DNA of 64,000 nucleotides, taken from assembly GCF_937129605.1 (NCBI RefSeq), contig NZ_CAKZNN010000007.1; one strand, 5' to 3'. The position numbers were made by a program, and so were the translations under genes. Within the stretch, counting starts at the first letter, position 1; every line of letters starts with the position of its first letter. Positions 54,775 to 63,572 of this stretch are shown piece by piece. This DNA comes from an uncultured Maritimibacter sp. Lineage in GTDB: Bacteria > Pseudomonadota > Alphaproteobacteria > Rhodobacterales > Rhodobacteraceae. The notes beneath the pieces were generated by a model. That model saw only the letters and a program-made list of their open reading frames with translations, searched no databases and was not told where the DNA came from.

Positions 54775-55246
54775 GTAATCTCTCCCAGGCGGGGCGTCCC
54801 TGGACCTTGCCGAAAAGGGCAAAGGCCACCACATCCGTCCCCGCAACAGTTGTTGTTGCATCCGTGCGGCGGCTGGCCGTTCTGCATCTGGTCCGGCTGC
54901 CGCACACCCTTGCGATCCGTGTCGCGTCCCTAAGGGCAGGGGTAAGGTGTGTCGCAGTGCGGTGGCTGGGCAATTCACCCCGGTTATCTGAACGTTACAT
55001 TCCGGGGCTTGTTTAATAATTAGGCGCAACTTGCCGCATTTGGCGCAAATTTGTGCGAACACTAGGCAGAAAGCGACGTATCATAGACGGAAAGCGTCTC
55101 ACTTCGACTCACGAGTGACTGATTTAATCCGCCGAAGGTCGCAGATTCATGTGCACGCGGCATTGCCTTTATAAATGCAAGAGATACAGTTGTCGTATGC
55201 AGAATACGAGTTTCCCAACCTATTCAAGAAACTGAATGGAAATCCG

Positions 55247-56245
55247 ATGCGTCTTACGGTCAAGCAAATGGAGGTCTTCCACGCAATCGTGGTCGCTGGC
55301 TCCATCAGCCAAGCCAAACGTGTGCTCGGGCTGTCCCAGCCGACGATCTCGCAGCAACTCGCCAAGATGGAAGAATTGCTGGGTGTGCAGCTCATCCATC
55401 GCGGGCGGGGCGAAAGCCTGCGCCTGACGGCGGCTGGAGAATACTGGTACAAGGCCAGCAACCGTATCCTGACCGAGTTCGAGAACGCCGAACAACAGCA
55501 CCGCATCCTCTTTGACGAGAAACGTCTGACTCTTCACTTCGGCACGACGCCCTCGCTCCGTGGCCGCTTTACCGAGGTGGCGGCGCAGACCGCGCTCGAG
55601 CTCGACCAGTTCGCGCGCTTCGATTTCGACTGGGGCCTGACCTCGGCGGAGGTCGTCGAAAACATCAACGCGCACAAGTTCAACTGCGGCGTCGTCTCGG
55701 CGGCAAGCATCGAGGACCAGCGCGCGTCGTTTCACATCGAGTTCCTGTTCAAGGACCGCATCGTCTGGGCCGTGCCCGCCGATGTCCCGGACGAGCTGAT
55801 CGCGCTGGCGCTCGACCGGCTCGATGTCGAACCGGGCGCCGAGGCGCTGTCGCGCTACGTCGACGTGACGCCGCCGATCCCGTGGCGCGAACGCTCGGAC
55901 AACTGGTATCGCTCGCAACTGCCCTTCGCCGCGCCCTATTTCGGCTGCGTTACGCACCAGGCAGCCGTCGATGTGGTGGCGGCGGGTCTTGCCACCTGTC
56001 ACACGCCGATCTCGCTCCTGCCCAACCTGCCCGAACAGGTGCGCGAGCGGATCAAGATCTTCGACATCGGCGAGCATATTCGCGAAGTGGTCTTTGTGAT
56101 GCCCAAGCATCTGATGAGCCTCAGGCCCTTTGCCATGTATGCCACCAAGATCTCGGAATACATCCGCGCCACCTATTCCGACGCGCAGTTCGTGGATCAG
56201 ATCCTGCCCATGCCCCGGATCGACCATCTGGCGGCGGCTGAGTGA
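55247..56245 (+). CDS. LysR-family transcriptional regulator
   Basis: HTH FHAIVVAGSISQAKRVLGLSQPTISQQLAKMEELLGVQLIHR..LTAAG. Confidence 0.9.
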   Translation: MRLTVKQMEVFHAIVVAGSISQAKRVLGLSQPTISQQLAKMEELLGVQLIHRGRGESLRLTAAGEYWYKASNRILTEFENAEQQHRILFDEKRLTLHFGTTPSLRGRFTEVAAQTALELDQFARFDFDWGLTSAEVVENINAHKFNCGVVSAASIEDQRASFHIEFLFKDRIVWAVPADVPDELIALALDRLDVEPGAEALSRYVDVTPPIPWRERSDNWYRSQLPFAAPYFGCVTHQAAVDVVAAGLATCHTPISLLPNLPEQVRERIKIFDIGEHIREVVFVMPKHLMSLRPFAMYATKISEYIRATYSDAQFVDQILPMPRIDHLAAAE

Positions 56246-56391: not shown

Positions 56392-58137
56392 ATGCGCACA
56401 TTGTCCACATCCGTGGCGGCGCTCGCCGCTACGGGATTGCTGTCTACTGCCCTCTGGGCCGACCCAGCCACGCCGGAACGCCTTGTCAATGCCGGGACCG
56501 ATGCCGAAGCCGCCAACTGGCTCACGGTCCACCGCACCTATGACAGCCACCGCTATTCGCCGCTGGACGAGATCACGCCGGAAAACGCCTCCGGCCTGAA
56601 ACTGGCCTTCGCCGTACCGCTGGGCGGAACCGAACCGTCGGCCTTCGGCGCAGGCGCGATGGAAACGACGCCGCTCGTCAAGGACGGCAAGATGTATGTC
56701 ACCGACCCCTGGGGCACCACGTACAAGATCGACGTTTCGACGGGCACCCGGGGCCAGATCGAGTGGATCTGCGATACCGCGATCGACAAGGACCCCTCCC
56801 TCGGGATCCTGCTCGCCAACCGGGGCGTGGCGCTGTCGGGCGATGTTGTCATATCCAATCTTCCTGACGGCCGTGTGGTGGCCTGCGACGATGCCTCGGG
56901 CGACATCGTGTGGGAACAGCAGACCGCCGATCAGCCGGGCGAAGGCTTTACGGGTGCGCCACTTGCCGTTGGGGACAAGGTCATTGTCGGCCAGTCCTAT
57001 GGCGACTGGGCCACACGGGGCTGGATCGCCGCCCTCGACGCGGCGACAGGTGAGGAAGTCTGGCGCTTCTACACCGTGCCGGAACCGGGTCAGCCCGGCT
57101 CGGAGACCTGGCTGTGCGAAGAAACGGGCAATCCCGATTGCTGGAAGACCGGCGGGGCCGCTGCCTGGGTGACCGGATCCTACGACCCGGAATCGAACAC
57201 ATTGATCTATGGTACGGGCAACCCCGTGCCGATGTTCGACCCGGAGTATCGCCCGGGCGATAACCTCTATTCCAACTCCGCCATTGCGCTCGACGCCGAT
57301 ACCGGCGAATTGAAATGGCACTTCCAGTATACGCCCGGCGACTACTTCGATTATGACGAAGTCGGCATTCACCTGCTGATCGACAAGGAAATCGACGGCG
57401 AAATGCGCAAGGTCGTGGGGCACTTCGGTCGAAACGGGTTCTTCTACAACCTCGATCGCACCAACGGGTCCTTCATCAACGCCGGCCAGTATGTCGAGAG
57501 GCTCAACTGGACCGACGGCGTCGATCCCAAGACAGGAAAGCCGCTGAATTACGACCCGAACGCAACGCTCCAGGCCTATGCGCAAGACGTCGTGCTGCGT
57601 CGTGACGGAGGGCCCGTCGAAAACTGTCCACACCTTCAAGGTGGCATCAACTTCTGGCCGACCGCCTATAACCCCGCGACCGGCATGGCCTATGGCCATT
57701 CGATCGAAGGCTGCTCGGAGTTGTCGACTGTTCCCGTCGCGCCCGAAGACGTGATGCAGGGCGCAATCTTCACCGGCGGCTCCAATGCTGATTCCGGCGA
57801 AATCGACGGCTCGATCGTTCAACTCGACGTCGCCACAGGTCAGGTCGTCAAGAAAGAGATGCGCGAGTATCCCGGTTATGCCGGCGTCCTGCTCTCGGGT
57901 GATCTGGTCTGGGTCGGCGAGCTGGACGGCACCTTCGGCGCCTACGATGCCGAAACGCTGGAACAGGTCTGGTCCACCAACCTGGGTGGGTCCTTCAAGG
58001 CACCGGCGATGACCTACGCGGTCGACGGCAAGCAGTATGTCGCCATTGTTTCAGGTCCCCTCGGCACTGGCTCCTTTGGCCATCCAGACATCGAACAGAC
58101 GCAGGGCGCCAACATGCTCTACGTCTTCTCGCTCTGA
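56392..58137 (+). CDS. Periplasmic PQQ-dependent dehydrogenase (methanol/ethanol family, divergent)
   Basis: Signal peptide; RYSPLDEI, ETTP, NRG, RGWIAALDAATGEEVWRF, GSYDP, GTGNP, FDYD, GRNGFFY.LDRTNG, YAVDGKQYV. Confidence 0.93.
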   Translation: MRTLSTSVAALAATGLLSTALWADPATPERLVNAGTDAEAANWLTVHRTYDSHRYSPLDEITPENASGLKLAFAVPLGGTEPSAFGAGAMETTPLVKDGKMYVTDPWGTTYKIDVSTGTRGQIEWICDTAIDKDPSLGILLANRGVALSGDVVISNLPDGRVVACDDASGDIVWEQQTADQPGEGFTGAPLAVGDKVIVGQSYGDWATRGWIAALDAATGEEVWRFYTVPEPGQPGSETWLCEETGNPDCWKTGGAAAWVTGSYDPESNTLIYGTGNPVPMFDPEYRPGDNLYSNSAIALDADTGELKWHFQYTPGDYFDYDEVGIHLLIDKEIDGEMRKVVGHFGRNGFFYNLDRTNGSFINAGQYVERLNWTDGVDPKTGKPLNYDPNATLQAYAQDVVLRRDGGPVENCPHLQGGINFWPTAYNPATGMAYGHSIEGCSELSTVPVAPEDVMQGAIFTGGSNADSGEIDGSIVQLDVATGQVVKKEMREYPGYAGVLLSGDLVWVGELDGTFGAYDAETLEQVWSTNLGGSFKAPAMTYAVDGKQYVAIVSGPLGTGSFGHPDIEQTQGANMLYVFSL

Positions 58138-58155: not shown

Positions 58156-58184
58156 TTTCCGGCCGCAGTCAACGCGGCCGGAAA
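58156..58184. other. Perfect 11-bp intergenic stem-loop between dehydrogenase and cytochrome genes
   Basis: TTTCCGGCCGC-AGTCAAC-GCGGCCGGAAA; no long T tail, so a stabiliser or partial terminator. Confidence 0.6.
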
Positions 58185-58240: not shown

Positions 58241-58762
58241 ATGAAGGCACGAACCACCCTCACCGCCGCGGCCAGCCTCGGCCTCGCGCTTCTCACCGCA
58301 CCGCTCATGGCGCAGGACGCCACGTTCAACCCTGAAGACTACGACATCGCGCGCGGCAAGGAGGTGTTCGAGCGCATCGGCGTCTGCGTTCAGTGCCACG
58401 GCTGGGACGGCAACGGCATGGGCCGCAACCCGCGTTCGGTCGGGATCGCGCCGAACCTGCGCGAGTTTCCCGATGATGCCGAGCTGCTGCACGAAGTCAT
58501 TGCCTGCGGTCGGCCTTACACCGAAATGCCGTATCACGACCGCAATGCCTATTCGGATGGCCGGTGCTACGACATGACGCTCGACGACTTCGAGGAGGGC
58601 GATGCGCCGTCGCGCGGGAAATCCATTCGTGACGACGATATCGACAACCTCGTGGCCTATATGCTCACCGACGTGATCGGCGCTGGTGAAACCACGCTCG
58701 AGCAATGCGAAAAATTCTTTGAGCCGGGTCACCGCAACTGCGCGCCGCTGGCCAACAGGTAA
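58241..58762 (+). CDS. Periplasmic monoheme cytochrome c
   Basis: Signal peptide; CVQCH heme motif, APNL, TEMP (candidate distal Met), DDDIDNLVAYM. Confidence 0.88.
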   Translation: MKARTTLTAAASLGLALLTAPLMAQDATFNPEDYDIARGKEVFERIGVCVQCHGWDGNGMGRNPRSVGIAPNLREFPDDAELLHEVIACGRPYTEMPYHDRNAYSDGRCYDMTLDDFEEGDAPSRGKSIRDDDIDNLVAYMLTDVIGAGETTLEQCEKFFEPGHRNCAPLANR

Positions 58763-58765
58763 GCC

Positions 58766-59539
58766 ATGCGGACCGCGATCACACCCATGCTCCTCGCGGC
58801 GCTTGCCGCCGGGGGCGTTCTGGCCAGCGGGGGCGCCATGGCGCAGGACCGGGACCGGTCCGCGCTCGAAGCACCCTTCGACATCTGGGATGCGCAACTG
58901 GGCGCGCCGGTGTCGATCATCCCTGCCGTGGATGTGAACGAACTGGCCTGCGGCACGAACGGCGGCCCCTATTCGCTGCCCTTGAGCGAACCTACCGACT
59001 TCATGTCCTGCCCGCCCGAAGCATCGGGCTTGCGTGAAGTCCATTTTTCCTACGACGACGAACTGGACTACGTCGCCCGCGCGATGGAGTCCGAATACGC
59101 CGTACTGCAAGACGGGACGACGGTGTTTTCCCACAAGGTCATGGTCTCGGTGCTCGTCAGCGAAGACGGCATCATCGAGGGTATCCGTATCCTGACCGAC
59201 CCCCGCATCCCCGCCCGCGAACGTCGCCGCGCCGTGACGCTCATGCGCAATCTGGAGGCCCGCTACGGTGACTGGACCCTCGCCTGCGAGGACATGCCGC
59301 TTGCGGAAGGCGAGATGATGATCGGCAACGTCTTTACCAAACGGGTCTGCACGGGGGTCTCACCCGAGGGCGACACCCACCTGCGCCTTGATGCGCGCTA
59401 TCTGCGCAAGGCCGGGCAACAGGCGGTGAACCCGGAAACCCGCGAACTCAATTCCACCTATTTCGAAAGTTTCTCGCGCCTCGAAATGGTGCGCGCACCC
59501 TACGAACCGACGCCGCCGCCCGTGAGGGCGACGCGATGA
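58766..59539 (+). CDS. Hypothetical secreted protein
   Basis: Signal peptide ending AMA; four Cys; 3 bp after the cytochrome stop. Confidence 0.75.
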   Translation: MRTAITPMLLAALAAGGVLASGGAMAQDRDRSALEAPFDIWDAQLGAPVSIIPAVDVNELACGTNGGPYSLPLSEPTDFMSCPPEASGLREVHFSYDDELDYVARAMESEYAVLQDGTTVFSHKVMVSVLVSEDGIIEGIRILTDPRIPARERRRAVTLMRNLEARYGDWTLACEDMPLAEGEMMIGNVFTKRVCTGVSPEGDTHLRLDARYLRKAGQQAVNPETRELNSTYFESFSRLEMVRAPYEPTPPPVRATR

Positions 59540-59541
59540 CC

Positions 59542-60303
59542 CTATTCGCTGTAGGTGCCGTCCGCATTGAAGGTGCGCGTGACGCGGGCCCCCTCCATCA
59601 CCGCGCCCCGCATATTTGCGCGCGAGAACCGGCTCTCGCTGATCTGCGCCCCGGTGAAGTTGGTGTCGCGCAGGTCGGTGCCCCAGAAGTCGGTGTATTC
59701 GATCGTCGCACCCTCGAAGTCCGCCTTGACCGCGTCGCTTTTCACCATCGAGACATAGGACATGGTGACCCCGGCAAAGCTCGACCGGCCAAAGCTCGCC
59801 TCGCTCATGCCCGTGTTGTGAAACGTGGCGCCGGACAGGTCCGCGTTGTTCACCCGTGCCGCTGTCAGATGGGCGTTGTCGATCCGCGCCCCTGCCAGCA
59901 CCGCGCTGGTCATTCGGCTGTGCTGCATCCGCGCCCCGTTGAGGTTGGCCCCGGCGAAGTTCGCCGCGGACAGTTGTGCCTCGTAGAACAATGCAGCGGA
60001 CAGGTCGGCCCCGGTGAAATCGGCCTGGCGCAGTTCCGCGACATTGAAATTCGCGTCGACCGCGGTGACATCGACAAAGATCGTGCCGTTCAGGATCGCC
60101 CGATGAAACCGTGCGCCGGTCAGGTCGGCGCCGGTCAGATCGACGCCCGACAGGTCGGCCTTCTTGAAATTCGCGTAGGCAAGGTCGCAGCCCCGGCATT
60201 CGGTCCGCGAGCCATCGCGAAGCGCCGCAACGATTGCTGGGTCGGCGCCGGCCCAAACGGGGGTGGCGGTGAGGGCTGTGATGACGGCGGTTACGATGCG
60301 CAT
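59542..60303 (-). CDS. Secreted pentapeptide-repeat protein (PedD-like)
   Basis: Signal peptide, CRGCDL cap, many A(D/N)LxG/ANF repeats. Confidence 0.92.
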   Translation of the reverse strand: MRIVTAVITALTATPVWAGADPAIVAALRDGSRTECRGCDLAYANFKKADLSGVDLTGADLTGARFHRAILNGTIFVDVTAVDANFNVAELRQADFTGADLSAALFYEAQLSAANFAGANLNGARMQHSRMTSAVLAGARIDNAHLTAARVNNADLSGATFHNTGMSEASFGRSSFAGVTMSYVSMVKSDAVKADFEGATIEYTDFWGTDLRDTNFTGAQISESRFSRANMRGAVMEGARVTRTFNADGTYSE

Positions 60304-60338: not shown

Positions 60339-60863
60339 ATGATCCCGGCCAAATCCAGCATTTTATCTTTTATAATCATAATGTTATCTGCGCCCTCCGC
60401 GCCCGCGGAAGATATGCGCCAAGACGCCGACGTCGTGACCGGCGAGGCCGAGATCCTTGACGCCGACGTGATCAAGATTGGCCCGCAGCGCGTGATCCTC
60501 TGGGGCGTGGACGCGCCGGAGCGGAACCAGTCCTGCTACAAGGACGGCGAACGCTGGGGCTGCGCGGATGCCGCAAAGCGCACGCTCGAACTGCTCGCGG
60601 GCCGCGGCGAAGTGACCTGTTTTCTCACTGGCGAAGCCGACCCCTTTGGCCGCCGCTACGGCGTCTGCGAAAGCGGCGGCGACGCGATCAATGAAGAGAT
60701 GGTGCGCCGCGGCATGGCGCTGGCCTATCTCGACCAGTCCCAAGATTACATCGACGCCCAGATGGACGCGATCACCGACGAAGTGGGCCTATGGGAGGTC
60801 GGCGTCGAGTTCGAGGAACCCTGGAAATTCCGCCTGCAAAACACACCCGGAGGCTTCCGTTGA
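60339..60863 (+). CDS. Secreted thermonuclease (SNase)-fold protein, probably lacking a catalytic Arg
   Basis: LDADVI, GVDAPE, DPFGR, INEEMVRRGMA, GLW motifs. Confidence 0.85.
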   Translation: MIPAKSSILSFIIIMLSAPSAPAEDMRQDADVVTGEAEILDADVIKIGPQRVILWGVDAPERNQSCYKDGERWGCADAAKRTLELLAGRGEVTCFLTGEADPFGRRYGVCESGGDAINEEMVRRGMALAYLDQSQDYIDAQMDAITDEVGLWEVGVEFEEPWKFRLQNTPGGFR

Positions 60864-61609
60864 GCGACCAGAGCATGGACGACCGTTCCCCCCTTGCCGC
60901 GCGTCTCGTCGGCAACCGCGCCTATGACGACCTGTTTCGCTGGGTGCTGCTCATGGCGCTCATCTGTCTGGGGGCCGTGATCCTGTGGGATTACGGCTAT
61001 CTCGCCTATCTCATTGACAACGACACCTCGGGCATCTCGACGCTGATCATCGCGATCTTCGGGGCCGCGAGTCTTTACTGCCTATGGTTCCTTTTCGACC
61101 TGTCCGGCGAGTTGTCGGCGCTCGCCCGCGTGATGAAGGGGCTCGAGGATGGCGGTGTGCCCGACATGGCCACGGCGGTGGACAAGCTGCGCAACCGCCG
61201 CCGCGTGGCACGGATCGTGAGCGATCTGAATACCATGCGCGTGACGACCGCCGGGTCGCCCGAAACGGTGTTGCAGGCCTTTGCCTCGGAACTGCGTGGC
61301 CCGGTGCGGCTGGGCGTGTTCATCTCGGACACGCTCTACAAACTCGGCCTCCTTGGAACGGTGATCGGGTTCATCCTCATGCTCGTCTCGATGCGCGATC
61401 TGGGCGAGTTCGACGTGGAAACCATGCGCTCGGCGCTGCAAAGCATGACCGGCGGCATGGCCGTCGCGCTCCTGACCACGATCACGGGCCTTTCCGCAGG
61501 TGTTCTCCTGCGGATGCAGTTCAACGTGCTCGACAGCCTCGCGCTTCGGATCACCCAGACTCTCGTGCGGTTTTCCGAGGTCGTGCTGCCCGCGGTCACG
61601 AGGGACTAG
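60860..61609 (+). CDS. MotA/TolQ/ExbB proton-channel family protein
   Basis: LGLLGTVIGF and GMAVALLTTITGL helices plus two N-terminal TMs; TTG 60860 overlaps the previous stop (alternative ATG 60875). Confidence 0.85.
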   Translation: MSDQSMDDRSPLAARLVGNRAYDDLFRWVLLMALICLGAVILWDYGYLAYLIDNDTSGISTLIIAIFGAASLYCLWFLFDLSGELSALARVMKGLEDGGVPDMATAVDKLRNRRRVARIVSDLNTMRVTTAGSPETVLQAFASELRGPVRLGVFISDTLYKLGLLGTVIGFILMLVSMRDLGEFDVETMRSALQSMTGGMAVALLTTITGLSAGVLLRMQFNVLDSLALRITQTLVRFSEVVLPAVTRD

Positions 61610-61612
61610 CAG

Positions 61613-62272
61613 ATGTTCGAGGACATCCGGGACGGTGACTACGACGCCTTTACCGACCTGCTGTTCAACGCACTGGTGGGGTTTGCCTTCATGTTCTTCA
61701 TCGCCTTCGCGATGATCAATCCCGTGGCCGAAGAGGGCAAGATCGACACCGAGGTCGAGATCCTGATCACTGTGCGTTGGCCCGATGGCCACGAGGACGA
61801 CATCGACGTCTATGTCGAGGACCCGGTGGGCAACATTGTCTGGTATCACGAACGCGAGGCGGGACTCATGCATCTGGACCGCGACGACCGGGGGCAGTTC
61901 AAGGACGTGCTTCTCGTGAACGGGGCCGAGATCGAGAACCCGCTCAATCAGGAAACCGTGTCGGTGCGGGGCCTAATGAACGGTGAATACGTGGTCAACG
62001 TGGTGCATTTCATCGCGACCTCGACCGATCCGGTGCGGGTGACGGTCAAGGTCGAAAAGATGAACCCCTCGGTGCGCGTGGTCTACTACGGTGAAACCGA
62101 CCTGACCGGCACCGGGGAAGAGGTGACGACCGTCCGCTTCACGCTCGACGACGACGAGATCATCGACCTCAACAACCGGCCCAAATCGCTCGTCGCGCTC
62201 ACCCGGCAGACCAAGACCAACACGCCCGGCGGTGATATGTCGCTCGGGTCGGGGGAGGTCGTGCGGCAATGA
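61613..62272 (+). CDS. Single-TM protein with membrane-proximal Asp (atypical ExbD/MotB-like partner)
   Basis: AFTDLLFNALVGFAFMFFIAFAMI, then a beta-rich periplasmic domain with DDIDVYVEDP and LDRDDRG. Confidence 0.7.
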   Translation: MFEDIRDGDYDAFTDLLFNALVGFAFMFFIAFAMINPVAEEGKIDTEVEILITVRWPDGHEDDIDVYVEDPVGNIVWYHEREAGLMHLDRDDRGQFKDVLLVNGAEIENPLNQETVSVRGLMNGEYVVNVVHFIATSTDPVRVTVKVEKMNPSVRVVYYGETDLTGTGEEVTTVRFTLDDDEIIDLNNRPKSLVALTRQTKTNTPGGDMSLGSGEVVRQ

Positions 62273-62847
62273 CCCAGACGATCATCACGCTCACGGTAGG
62301 CTATGCCCTCGTCGCCGTCCTCGTCGCGCTCGTCGTGCTTCAGGCGCGGTTTCACTGGCTGATCAAGGGCGGGCTGACGCTGGCGCTCGCGGCGCTTCTG
62401 TTCCTGACCTATCAGGGCGTCGGCAAACTGCGCGGCCTGCCGTCGGATACGAACCCGCCCGAGCGTTTCCGGCTCTACTGGGCGCAGATCGAGGAGCCGG
62501 ACAAGCTCACGGGTGACCCCGGTGCGATCTTTCTGTGGCTGGGCGAGCTTGACGCGGATTACTACCCCGTCGGCCAGCCCCGCGCACACCGCCTGCCCTA
62601 TTCCGACGAACTGGCCGCGCTGGTCCTAGAAGCACAGGCCAAGGTGGCCAAGGGCGAGGATATCGCGGGCGAGGTGTCCGAGGACGAGGCGGAAGAGGAC
62701 CCGGCCGAGACCCTGGCGGAAGAGGCGATGGAGGAGGCCGAACAGGGCAATTCGTCGCGCATTGGCACGCGGGTTCTGAGTTTCGACTTCGGCAATCTGC
62801 GGTTCGACACGACGCCCGCGCCGGTCACGCCGGAAAAGGACAACTAG
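62269..62847 (+). CDS. Hypothetical membrane-anchored protein with an acidic linker
   Basis: Two N-terminal TMs; EVSEDEAEEDPAETLAEEAMEEAE stretch; ATGA overlap with the previous gene. Confidence 0.72.
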   Translation: MTQTIITLTVGYALVAVLVALVVLQARFHWLIKGGLTLALAALLFLTYQGVGKLRGLPSDTNPPERFRLYWAQIEEPDKLTGDPGAIFLWLGELDADYYPVGQPRAHRLPYSDELAALVLEAQAKVAKGEDIAGEVSEDEAEEDPAETLAEEAMEEAEQGNSSRIGTRVLSFDFGNLRFDTTPAPVTPEKDN

Positions 62848-63572
62848 CCGGTGAGGCGGGAGTAAGCGTCCACCAGATCGACGGCCCCGCTCTGGTCGAT
62901 CAGCGCGGCGGGCGATCCGGTGGCGACCACGCGCCCCTTCACCAGCATGATCACGTCATCGGCGCGCTCGACCTCGTCCACCAGATGCGTGGCCCAAAGA
63001 ACCGCGACGGAATTGCCGGCGGCAAGCCGGTGAATGTCCTCGACCAGCGCGCGCCGCGAGGGCGTATCCAGCCCGGCGGACGGTTCATCCATGATGATGA
63101 GGTCCGGATCATTGATAAGCGCGCGCGCGATCTCGACCTTGCGCTGCTGCCCGCCCGACAGATTGCGCACCGGACGCTTGAGCAGATCAGCGAGGCCAAA
63201 TTGCTCGGCCAGCGCCTCGATCCGTTCATCGAGCGCACGTCCGCCCAGCCCAAACAGCCGCCCGTGAAACCGCAGGTTCGCCCGAATCGACATATCGAGG
63301 TCCACGGACCGCGCCTGAAACACGACCCCCATGCGGCGGCGAATGTCGGACCCGGCGTCACGATGGGTCATGCCGAACACCTCGACCGCCCCCGCGTCCG
63401 GCGCAAAAAGCCCCGCGATGATCTGGAAAAGCGTCGACTTGCCCGCACCATTGGGACCGAGCAGCCCCACGAACCGCCCCGGCGCGATCCTGAGCGACAC
63501 GCCGTCAAGCGCCGTGACGGCGCCGTAACGCTTGACCACATCCTGCATTTCCAGCACCGGCGTTTCGGTCAT
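62844..63572 (-). CDS. ABC ATPase of the PQQ-alcohol-dehydrogenase-associated type
   Basis: LLGPNGAGKSTLF, GVVFQ..DLDMS..NLRFHG, RKVEIARAL, VLWATHLVDE. Confidence 0.82.
   Translation of the reverse strand: MTETPVLEMQDVVKRYGAVTALDGVSLRIAPGRFVGLLGPNGAGKSTLFQIIAGLFAPDAGAVEVFGMTHRDAGSDIRRRMGVVFQARSVDLDMSIRANLRFHGRLFGLGGRALDERIEALAEQFGLADLLKRPVRNLSGGQQRKVEIARALINDPDLIIMDEPSAGLDTPSRRALVEDIHRLAAGNSVAVLWATHLVDEVERADDVIMLVKGRVVATGSPAALIDQSGAVDLVDAYSRLTG

Follow-up and report, generated by a model that had tools for sequence, protein, structure and literature searches.

The window examined here, a 64,000-nucleotide stretch of DNA from an uncultured Maritimibacter sp. (positions 386905 to 450904 of contig C7 of host genome G000), contains a gene for a dehydrogenase of the pyrroloquinoline quinone (PQQ) type, called ADH (alcohol dehydrogenase) below, whose active site departs from that of the canonical enzymes (Table 1). 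The gene is preceded by a GGAGG Shine-Dalgarno sequence 7 nt 5' of its ATG. Its product is a predicted secreted, eight-bladed PQQ propeller. The N terminus looks like that of a Sec-type signal without a twin-arginine motif, and the confidence of the AlphaFold2 model (predicted local distance difference test, pLDDT) lies below 50 over residues 1 to 23. The protein ends with the propeller; it carries no fused C-terminal haem c domain, and the cytochrome is encoded by a separate gene. There are exactly six cysteines (127, 165, 242, 250, 412 and 441) and, since none of them lie four residues apart, no CxxCH motif.

We compared ADH with known families at the level of both sequence and fold. With the NCBIfam model for the methanol/ethanol family (TIGR03075), ADH scored 436.4 bits, below the cut-off of 480.05, and the PedH orthologue of the same host scored 768.7 bits. 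The best scores against the PDB were obtained with PedH (260 bits), followed by type II quinohemoproteins (≈ 250 bits) and XoxF and MxaF (190 to 220 bits). PedH (6zcv/6zcw) is thus the nearest solved relative, at 31 to 34% identity. An AlphaFold2 model built with 24 relatives reached a pLDDT of 77 and a predicted template modelling score (pTM) of 0.82. Foldseek superimposed this model on all solved type I enzymes, PedH, XoxF and MxaF, and also on ADH-II, with template modelling scores (TM) of 0.78 to 0.82. PedH ranked first (TM 0.80, 31% identity), and the DepA/sorbose-type enzymes ranked lower (24 to 27% identity). The second-best NCBIfam model was TIGR04528 ('acido-empty-quinoprotein group A'), at 340.6 bits with a cut-off of 650. 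Membership in this group was rejected on score; ten representatives of the wider clade also remained below the cut-off (244 to 406 bits).

All residues are numbered on the precursor, and each position named in a preliminary description of this DNA was checked by script. The HMMER alignment to PedH was gapless around every motif. E91, R144, N277 and D320-Y-D322 were found where they had been placed (GAMETTPLV, LANRG, GTGNPVP and YFDYDEV). The same description had stated that the cysteine pair that normally precedes NRG is replaced by GILLA and that the metal-ligand Glu is swapped for Asp205. The alignment bears out both statements: the Cys-Cys of PedH falls on G138-I139 (SLGILLANRG), and the Glu of its GGEFG motif on D205 (GQSYGDWAT). 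All characterised type I enzymes have the metal-ligand Glu here, within a G-x-[SA]-G-x-E motif. The Ala, Ser or Thr found two residues after the catalytic Asp in Ca-type enzymes (MxaF, ExaA-PedE) is absent; this position is Asp322. A CEETGNPDC loop had been described as lying just before the active-site Trp. The loop is present and abuts W251, but according to the PedH alignment the stacking Trp is W259. The loop preceding W251 is ≈ 10 residues shorter than its equivalent in PedH. This hints at the larger or different substrate that had been proposed, but no evidence on the substrate was found, and the genes of the cluster yielded no clue to it.

Conservation was assessed in the 24 relatives, which are 62 to 83% identical to ADH. 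R144, S202, D205, W259, N277, D320, Y321, D322, R347 and N420 were invariant, as were C242, C250, C412 and C441, and E91 (sometimes Gln), C127 and C165 were at least 90% conserved. A Cys-Cys pair occurred in 0 of the 24 relatives, and no member of the clade described below has one in the 14 residues that precede R144. Because they are invariant in relatives of this identity, these residue features do not reflect chance. Cys127 and Cys165 are either both kept or both substituted (by Gly and Phe in one subgroup of Devosia), and in the trees Cys242 and Cys250 are likewise both present or both absent. Such paired gain and loss is expected of disulfide partners. The C412 and C441 columns are also Cys in XoxF5-like sequences; we take this pair to be the second disulfide of methanol dehydrogenase.

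The trees were built from 80 loci of the query family in named genomes, which were found with a pattern containing the Asp motif and therefore carry Asp by construction, together with unbiased 50%-identity representatives from the full HMMER scan and 29 TIGR03075 matches obtained by sampling 150 alphaproteobacterial genomes evenly. FastTree was applied to 159 rows; IQ-TREE was applied to 72 rows under a mixture model. Reference groups were labelled by PDB searches (L102 as XoxF5, 999 bits to 6oc5; L120 as a PedH sister, 448 bits), and rows of ≈ 700 residues with D-Y-T were taken as quinohemoproteins from length and motif. The preliminary description had assigned ADH to a clade outside XoxF and PedH and had proposed a phylogeny as the check. 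Both trees agree with it: the query clade is separate from the XoxF5, PedH-like and quinohemoprotein groups (support 99 to 100), in line with the TIGR03075 score below cut-off and the weak PDB scores.

The query clade comprises 34 rows (Shimodaira–Hasegawa-like approximate likelihood ratio test 99) that lack Cys-Cys and mostly have Asp at position 205. Its nearest outgroup (P0139, P0140 and others) retains Cys-Cys and Glu. The topology places the loss of Cys-Cys and the Glu-to-Asp change at the base of the clade. The Cys242-Cys250 loop is limited to the query subfamily (10 rows, support 100; 12 rows at support 96 when the L080 Cys-loop pair is added). Raw counts were ≈ 114 sequences without Cys-Cys and with Asp, ≈ 70 with Cys-Cys and Glu, ≈ 10 without Cys-Cys and with Glu, and ≈ 7 with Cys-Cys and Asp. 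On the tree, the coupling of the two changes was represented by 8 independent pairs (median p 0.125). A coupling between them is suggestive only, because the fetch pattern contained Asp and just 8 independent contrasts were available.

The closest named relative of ADH is that of Maritimibacter harenae (83% identity), and cultured, non-pathogenic strains of Devosia and Maritimibacter are among the carriers. Members of the wider clade are nearly all metagenomic, with generic annotations only. The clade is an almost wholly uncharacterised branch of the type I quinoprotein family. Homologues at 62 to 64% identity also occurred in bins assigned to Limisphaerales (Verrucomicrobiota), Halioglobus and Fluviibacter (loci L025, L038 and L075; the latter two genera are Gammaproteobacteria in GTDB). 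These out-of-range occurrences could reflect horizontal transfer or mis-binning. On plasmids, the search for relatives returned one sequence at 45% identity (Skermanella) and otherwise sequences of at most 37%. Some uncultured alphaproteobacterial genomes carry several clade paralogues (three in one locus at L080), and one Hyphomicrobiales metagenome-assembled genome (behind L089 to L097) has at least six relatives of 50 to 51% identity on separate contigs or sites.

The surroundings of ADH were compared across 80 loci from Devosia, Maritimibacter, other Rhodobacterales, Geminicoccales, Hyphomicrobiales and a few odd bins. The recurring order was LysR, ADH, monoheme cytochrome c, a 257-residue protein, a pentapeptide-repeat protein and a four-gene module. 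A LysR homologue lies upstream of ADH in most of the loci, and the cytochrome gene directly 3' of it in most to nearly all, in several orders. The cytochrome gave no match to PedF (TIGR03874) or MoxG (TIGR03872) in NCBIfam, and a PDB search with it returned weak haem-site matches only and no close solved relative. The 257-residue protein was found in 69 related loci, with Cys62, Cys82, Cys174 and Cys195 invariant. Its AlphaFold2 model was confident (pLDDT 85), and a fold search of the PDB with this model gave no match at E ≤ 0.001. It forms a fusion with the pentapeptide-repeat protein in two loci (L090 and L097), an arrangement suggesting that the two proteins act together. The four-gene module, syntenic with ADH in 55 to 57 of the 80 loci and in several orders, might energise cofactor or metal supply. 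Its SNase-fold protein is secreted, and the Asp-bearing transmembrane helix of its 219-residue protein resembles those of ExbD, TolR or MotB. No TonB-dependent receptor was seen beside the module. Within the cluster we detected no xoxJ/xoxG-type genes, no PedG/MoxJ-type proteins and no aldehyde dehydrogenase, and tRNA and Rfam scans of the window gave no matches. Between the ADH stop and the cytochrome start is a perfect 10-bp inverted repeat (ttccggccgc agtcaac gcggccggaa; 58157-58183, + strand). It was read by eye and is not followed by a T-run; it may be an mRNA-stabilising or attenuating hairpin.

Table 1. Features of the ADH locus, with positions in the window and the basis of each assignment
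Feature	Position	Strand	Basis
PQQ-type dehydrogenase (ADH), 581 residues	56392..58137	+	Pfam PQQ PF01011 1.9e-57; PedH 6zcv E 2.9e-76
Signal peptide, residues 1-23 (…ALWA/DP)	56392..56460	+	Read off the translation; predicted cleavage site
Codons G138-I139, at the vicinal Cys-Cys site of canonical enzymes	56803..56808	+	PedH alignment, rpCCdviNRG vs slGIllaNRG
Codon D205, at the metal-ligand Glu site of canonical enzymes	57004..57006	+	PedH GGEFG vs YGDWA
C242-EETGNPD-C250 loop, putative disulfide staple before W251	57115..57141	+	Both Cys invariant in close relatives
Codon N277, metal-ligand Asn	57220..57222	+	GTGNP aligned with PedH GTGNP; invariant
Codons D320-Y321-D322, catalytic Asp and 'lanthanide' Asp	57349..57357	+	Aligned with PedH D-F-D; invariant
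LysR-family regulator, directly upstream	55175..56245	+	Pfam HTH_1 1.7e-18 and LysR_substrate
Monoheme c-type cytochrome (CVQCH) with signal peptide	58241..58762	+	Pfam Cytochrom_C 9.8e-9
Secreted 257-residue protein, unknown fold	58766..59539	+	No Pfam or NCBIfam match
Secreted pentapeptide-repeat protein, PedD-like	59542..60303	-	Pfam Pentapeptide 3.2e-42; conserved beside ADH
Four-gene module: staphylococcal nuclease (SNase) fold, MotA/ExbB-type channel, 219-residue partner with Asp in a transmembrane helix, 192-residue membrane protein with acidic tail	60339..62847	+	Pfam SNase 5.7e-8, MotA_ExbB 3e-10
PedB-like ATP-binding cassette (ABC) ATPase, 'PQQ-dependent alcohol dehydrogenase system'	62844..63572	-	TIGR03864 282.8 bits, cut-off 302
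Beta-propeller of PedA1A2BC-like set	beyond window end		TIGR03866 302 bits, cut-off 287 (above)
Substrate-binding protein of PedA1A2BC-like set	beyond window end		TIGR03863 336 bits, cut-off 414
Permease of PedA1A2BC-like set	beyond window end		TIGR03861 216 bits, cut-off 241

A full PedA1A2BC-like transporter set adjoins the cluster. Three of its four components score below the NCBIfam cut-off, the two lowest on ORFs (open reading frames) taken from the first Met and possibly truncated. The PedB-like ATPase was found beside the cluster in 34 of the 80 loci, despite short flanks. In Pseudomonas putida, PedA1A2BC is a lanthanide importer needed for PedH-dependent growth; Pseudomonas aeruginosa has neither a lanthanide enzyme nor this transporter, and in Pseudomonas pedD is a pentapeptide-repeat gene next to pedE/pedF, with pedF encoding a cytochrome (PMC12997753). 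The host also has a PedH orthologue (C9:77459-79225, - strand; 824 bits to 6zcv) with Cys-Cys, Glu and D-F-D, and beside it, at ≈ 80400 to 85000 of contig C9, a canonical PedA1A2BC-like set whose propeller scores 508 bits. Two ped-like systems thus exist side by side in the host genome, of which one is canonical and the other divergent. The region of the divergent set (C7:449700-456450) also holds an SsuA/NMT1-type ABC system and a 140-residue secreted protein without a family match. The genome encodes at least three PQQ-type propellers; the third, of ≈ 670 residues and with D-Y-D, lies within C9:214342-216123 (- strand).

Neither pqqC nor pqqE was found above cut-off in the host genome, which is 99.8% complete; the pqqC search does detect this gene in relatives. 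The host therefore looks like a PQQ auxotroph that would rely on scavenged PQQ. Without PQQ synthesis, both ADH and the canonical PedH must be loaded with scavenged cofactor, and since PedH too needs PQQ, scavenging must occur in this host whatever the nature of ADH.

Leaving aside the choice of metal, we consider it fairly probable that ADH is a PQQ-dependent, cytochrome-c-linked dehydrogenase of a distinct clade. It would be a periplasmic alcohol, aldehyde or polyol dehydrogenase that works like its relatives. PQQ, taken up from outside the cell, would lie under W259 and be held by R144, S202, R347 and N420. The metal ion would be ligated by PQQ together with D205, N277, D320 and D322. D320 would act as the base, hydride would pass to C5 of PQQ, and the electrons would leave to the co-encoded monoheme cytochrome c and thence to the respiratory chain. 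Gly-Ile stands in place of the Cys-Cys ring, in a loop for which a new C127-C165 disulfide is the probable anchor, and a second new disulfide, C242-C250, would staple the shortened lid loop. A role in maturation, or as partners of the enzyme, is probable for the 257-residue protein and the PedD-like pentapeptide protein.

Given a working enzyme, the indications tip slightly towards a lanthanide as its metal. A trivalent lanthanide would be the likelier ion because the site offers three carboxylates and a charge balance like those of XoxF and PedH, and because a PedA1A2BC-like importer is adjacent. It is favoured also by D322, which is present and invariant: Asp at this position, two residues past the catalytic one, is generally accepted as marking lanthanide enzymes (bioRxiv 10.1101/2020.02.25.964783; PMC11996626).

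Several observations weigh against this reading, as regards both the enzyme and its metal. The AlphaFold2 model is of moderate quality (pLDDT 77), and the active-site geometry is read from the sequence alignment. Among the clade members found, none has been studied biochemically. Two Trp residues of PedH (aplWggv and sgWgg) are not conserved in ADH; since the PQQ-covering ring is gone as well, the cofactor pocket has been remodelled. Just 8 of the 27 ADH carriers tested have pqqC (1 or 2 of the 27 are possibly duplicates), and in three Devosia without pqqC, ADH is the sole type I homologue (E ≤ 1e-60). The baseline comes from 33 sampled alphaproteobacteria whose genomes encode canonical PQQ-ADHs: pqqC was present in 20 and missing from 13. 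PQQ auxotrophy is thus common among quinoprotein carriers and looks more frequent for this ADH family, the kinship of the carriers being uncontrolled. Devosia strains without activity for epimerising deoxynivalenol (DON) have no PQQ cluster (PMC11331793). As to the metal, membrane glucose dehydrogenase has D-x-D but functions with various metals, Ca and Mg among them (PMC11996626), and related DON-oxidising PQQ enzymes from Devosia and Ketogulonicigenium were assayed with Ca2+ (PMC10301637, PMC10975547). The shorter Asp205 might also make D322 a compensating Ca2+ ligand.

These last points belong to the explanation that survives best beside the one we favour, namely that ADH is the same PQQ dehydrogenase and is Ca2+-dependent or metal-promiscuous. 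Asp205 has one methylene less than Glu, and D322 would then have been retained as a Ca2+ ligand that compensates for this, with D-x-D as the ancestral state. D-x-D was indeed the commonest state in nearly all clades sampled, many of them uncharacterised; the caution given in the preliminary description, that D-x-D is necessary but not sufficient evidence, was therefore well placed. Seawater, moreover, contains ≈ 10^-2 M Ca and ≈ 10^-11 M lanthanides (PMC11996626). Nevertheless, the +2 residue of characterised Ca enzymes of the superfamily is Ala, Ser or Thr, the ADH subfamily has D322 throughout and contains no Ca-type variants, and a dedicated PedA1A2BC-like set adjoins the cluster. On balance, we regard Ca dependence or promiscuity as rather unlikely.

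A bolder version of the lanthanide reading is that the clade forms a new rare-earth enzyme class, with a metal site of Asp and Asn only (D205, N277, D320 and D322) and no disulfide ring. The different geometry of this site would confer a metal selectivity or a redox tuning that XoxF and PedH do not have. The clade would use scavenged PQQ and have accessory genes of its own (the 257-residue protein, the PedD-like protein and the MotA/ExbB-type module) for maturation or supply, with electrons still passing to cytochrome c. We hold this to be doubtful. If it is true, the Cys-Cys ring would be dispensable for electron transfer to cytochrome c.

ADH could also be an 'empty quinoprotein', that is, a propeller that binds, senses or scaffolds without PQQ or that carries another quinone. 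The PQQ-supply results fit this explanation: the host and 19 of the 27 carriers are without pqqC, and the three Devosia strains have no other type I homologue. So do the rank of TIGR04528 as second-best model (341 bits) and the loss of the Cys-Cys ring and the two pocket Trp. Against it, the catalytic Asp, the metal ligands, the stacking Trp and the Arg, Ser and Asn contacts to PQQ are all invariant, and it is difficult to account for such constancy if the protein does not catalyse. Next to ADH there is a conserved cytochrome c, the host's canonical PedH needs PQQ too, lack of pqqC also occurs in the 13 of 33 genomes with canonical PQQ-ADHs, and the TIGR04528 scores lie far below 650 for ADH and the ten clade representatives. 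An empty propeller is therefore improbable. That a working PQQ dehydrogenase passes its electrons to the 257-residue protein or another carrier is hardly credible: the vicinal disulfide of a Pseudomonas ethanol dehydrogenase is reportedly needed for efficient transfer to cytochrome c550, and the neighbouring cytochrome is outside the PedF and MoxG families and without a close solved relative, but its gene directly follows ADH in nearly all loci of several orders, and the cluster showed no gene for a Rieske protein or a cupredoxin.

Many uncharacterised D-x-D clades have already been noted in surveys, and in metagenomes the D-x-D motif is currently the sole basis for inferring lanthanide use (PMC11996626). 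Archaeal quinoproteins that have D-Y-D but lack Cys-Cys have been reported (PMC7300363), and Cys-Cys is nearly universal among Methylobacterium PQQ-ADH homologues (PMC8561711). In the literature covered, which did not include the Keltjens 2014 classification, we found no description of the present clade, the Glu-to-Asp swap, the two extra disulfides or the accessory genes. The clade is a natural test of the D-x-D rule, because the motif is kept while two other supposedly fixed features of the active site are changed. It is likewise a natural test of the roles of the vicinal disulfide and the ligand Glu in metal choice and in electron transfer to cytochrome c. Devosia strains that have no type I homologue besides ADH, and in which genes for PQQ synthesis were not found, offer a clean background for knockouts and for feeding with PQQ or lanthanides, and several closely linked proteins of unknown function could serve in the maturation or supply of quinoproteins as factors not described before.

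Among known enzymes, the lanthanide-dependent ethanol dehydrogenases PedH/ExaF ('PQQ-ADH type 2b') share with ADH a secreted eight-bladed propeller with the Asn, catalytic Asp, +2 Asp, Arg and stacking Trp, as well as a pentapeptide-repeat gene, a cytochrome c and a PedA1A2BC-type transporter nearby. ADH differs from them in the absence of Cys-Cys, the Asp in place of the ligand Glu and a lid loop ≈ 10 residues shorter with a putative disulfide of its own. In addition, identity is only 31 to 34%, the cytochrome does not belong to the PedF type, the clade is separate and the host has a true PedH elsewhere. XoxF and MxaF resemble ADH in fold and catalytic core, XoxF also in its D-Y-D, and the C412/C441 columns are Cys in XoxF5-like sequences. 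In contrast to XoxF and MxaF, which score 190 to 220 bits, ADH has no Cys-Cys ring, Asp for Glu and no xoxJ/xoxG-type neighbours, and the XoxF5 clade is far from it in both trees. The type II quinohemoprotein ADHs (1kv9, 1yiq and 1kb0) have a propeller that scores ≈ 250 bits, close to that of PedH, but they have Cys-Cys, Glu and D-x-T, and a cytochrome domain is fused to their C terminus.

The DepA/QDDH and sorbose-type enzymes (7wmd, 22vi, 4cvb and 4mh1) are PQQ propellers from the same genera (Devosia, Rhodobacterales), and their alignment with ADH reaches the very C terminus. They are, however, more distant (E 1e-40 to 1e-43, 24 to 27% identity) and were assayed with Ca2+. TIGR04528, to judge by the name of the model, resembles the ADH family in covering quinoprotein homologues of organisms without PQQ synthesis. 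At the level of the gene cluster, the ped cluster of P. putida KT2440 likewise combines a PQQ-ADH, a cytochrome c, the pentapeptide-repeat protein PedD and the PedA1A2BC ABC system, whereas the cluster described here has a LysR regulator instead of PedS/PedR and contains in addition the protein of unknown fold and the SNase/MotA-ExbB module.

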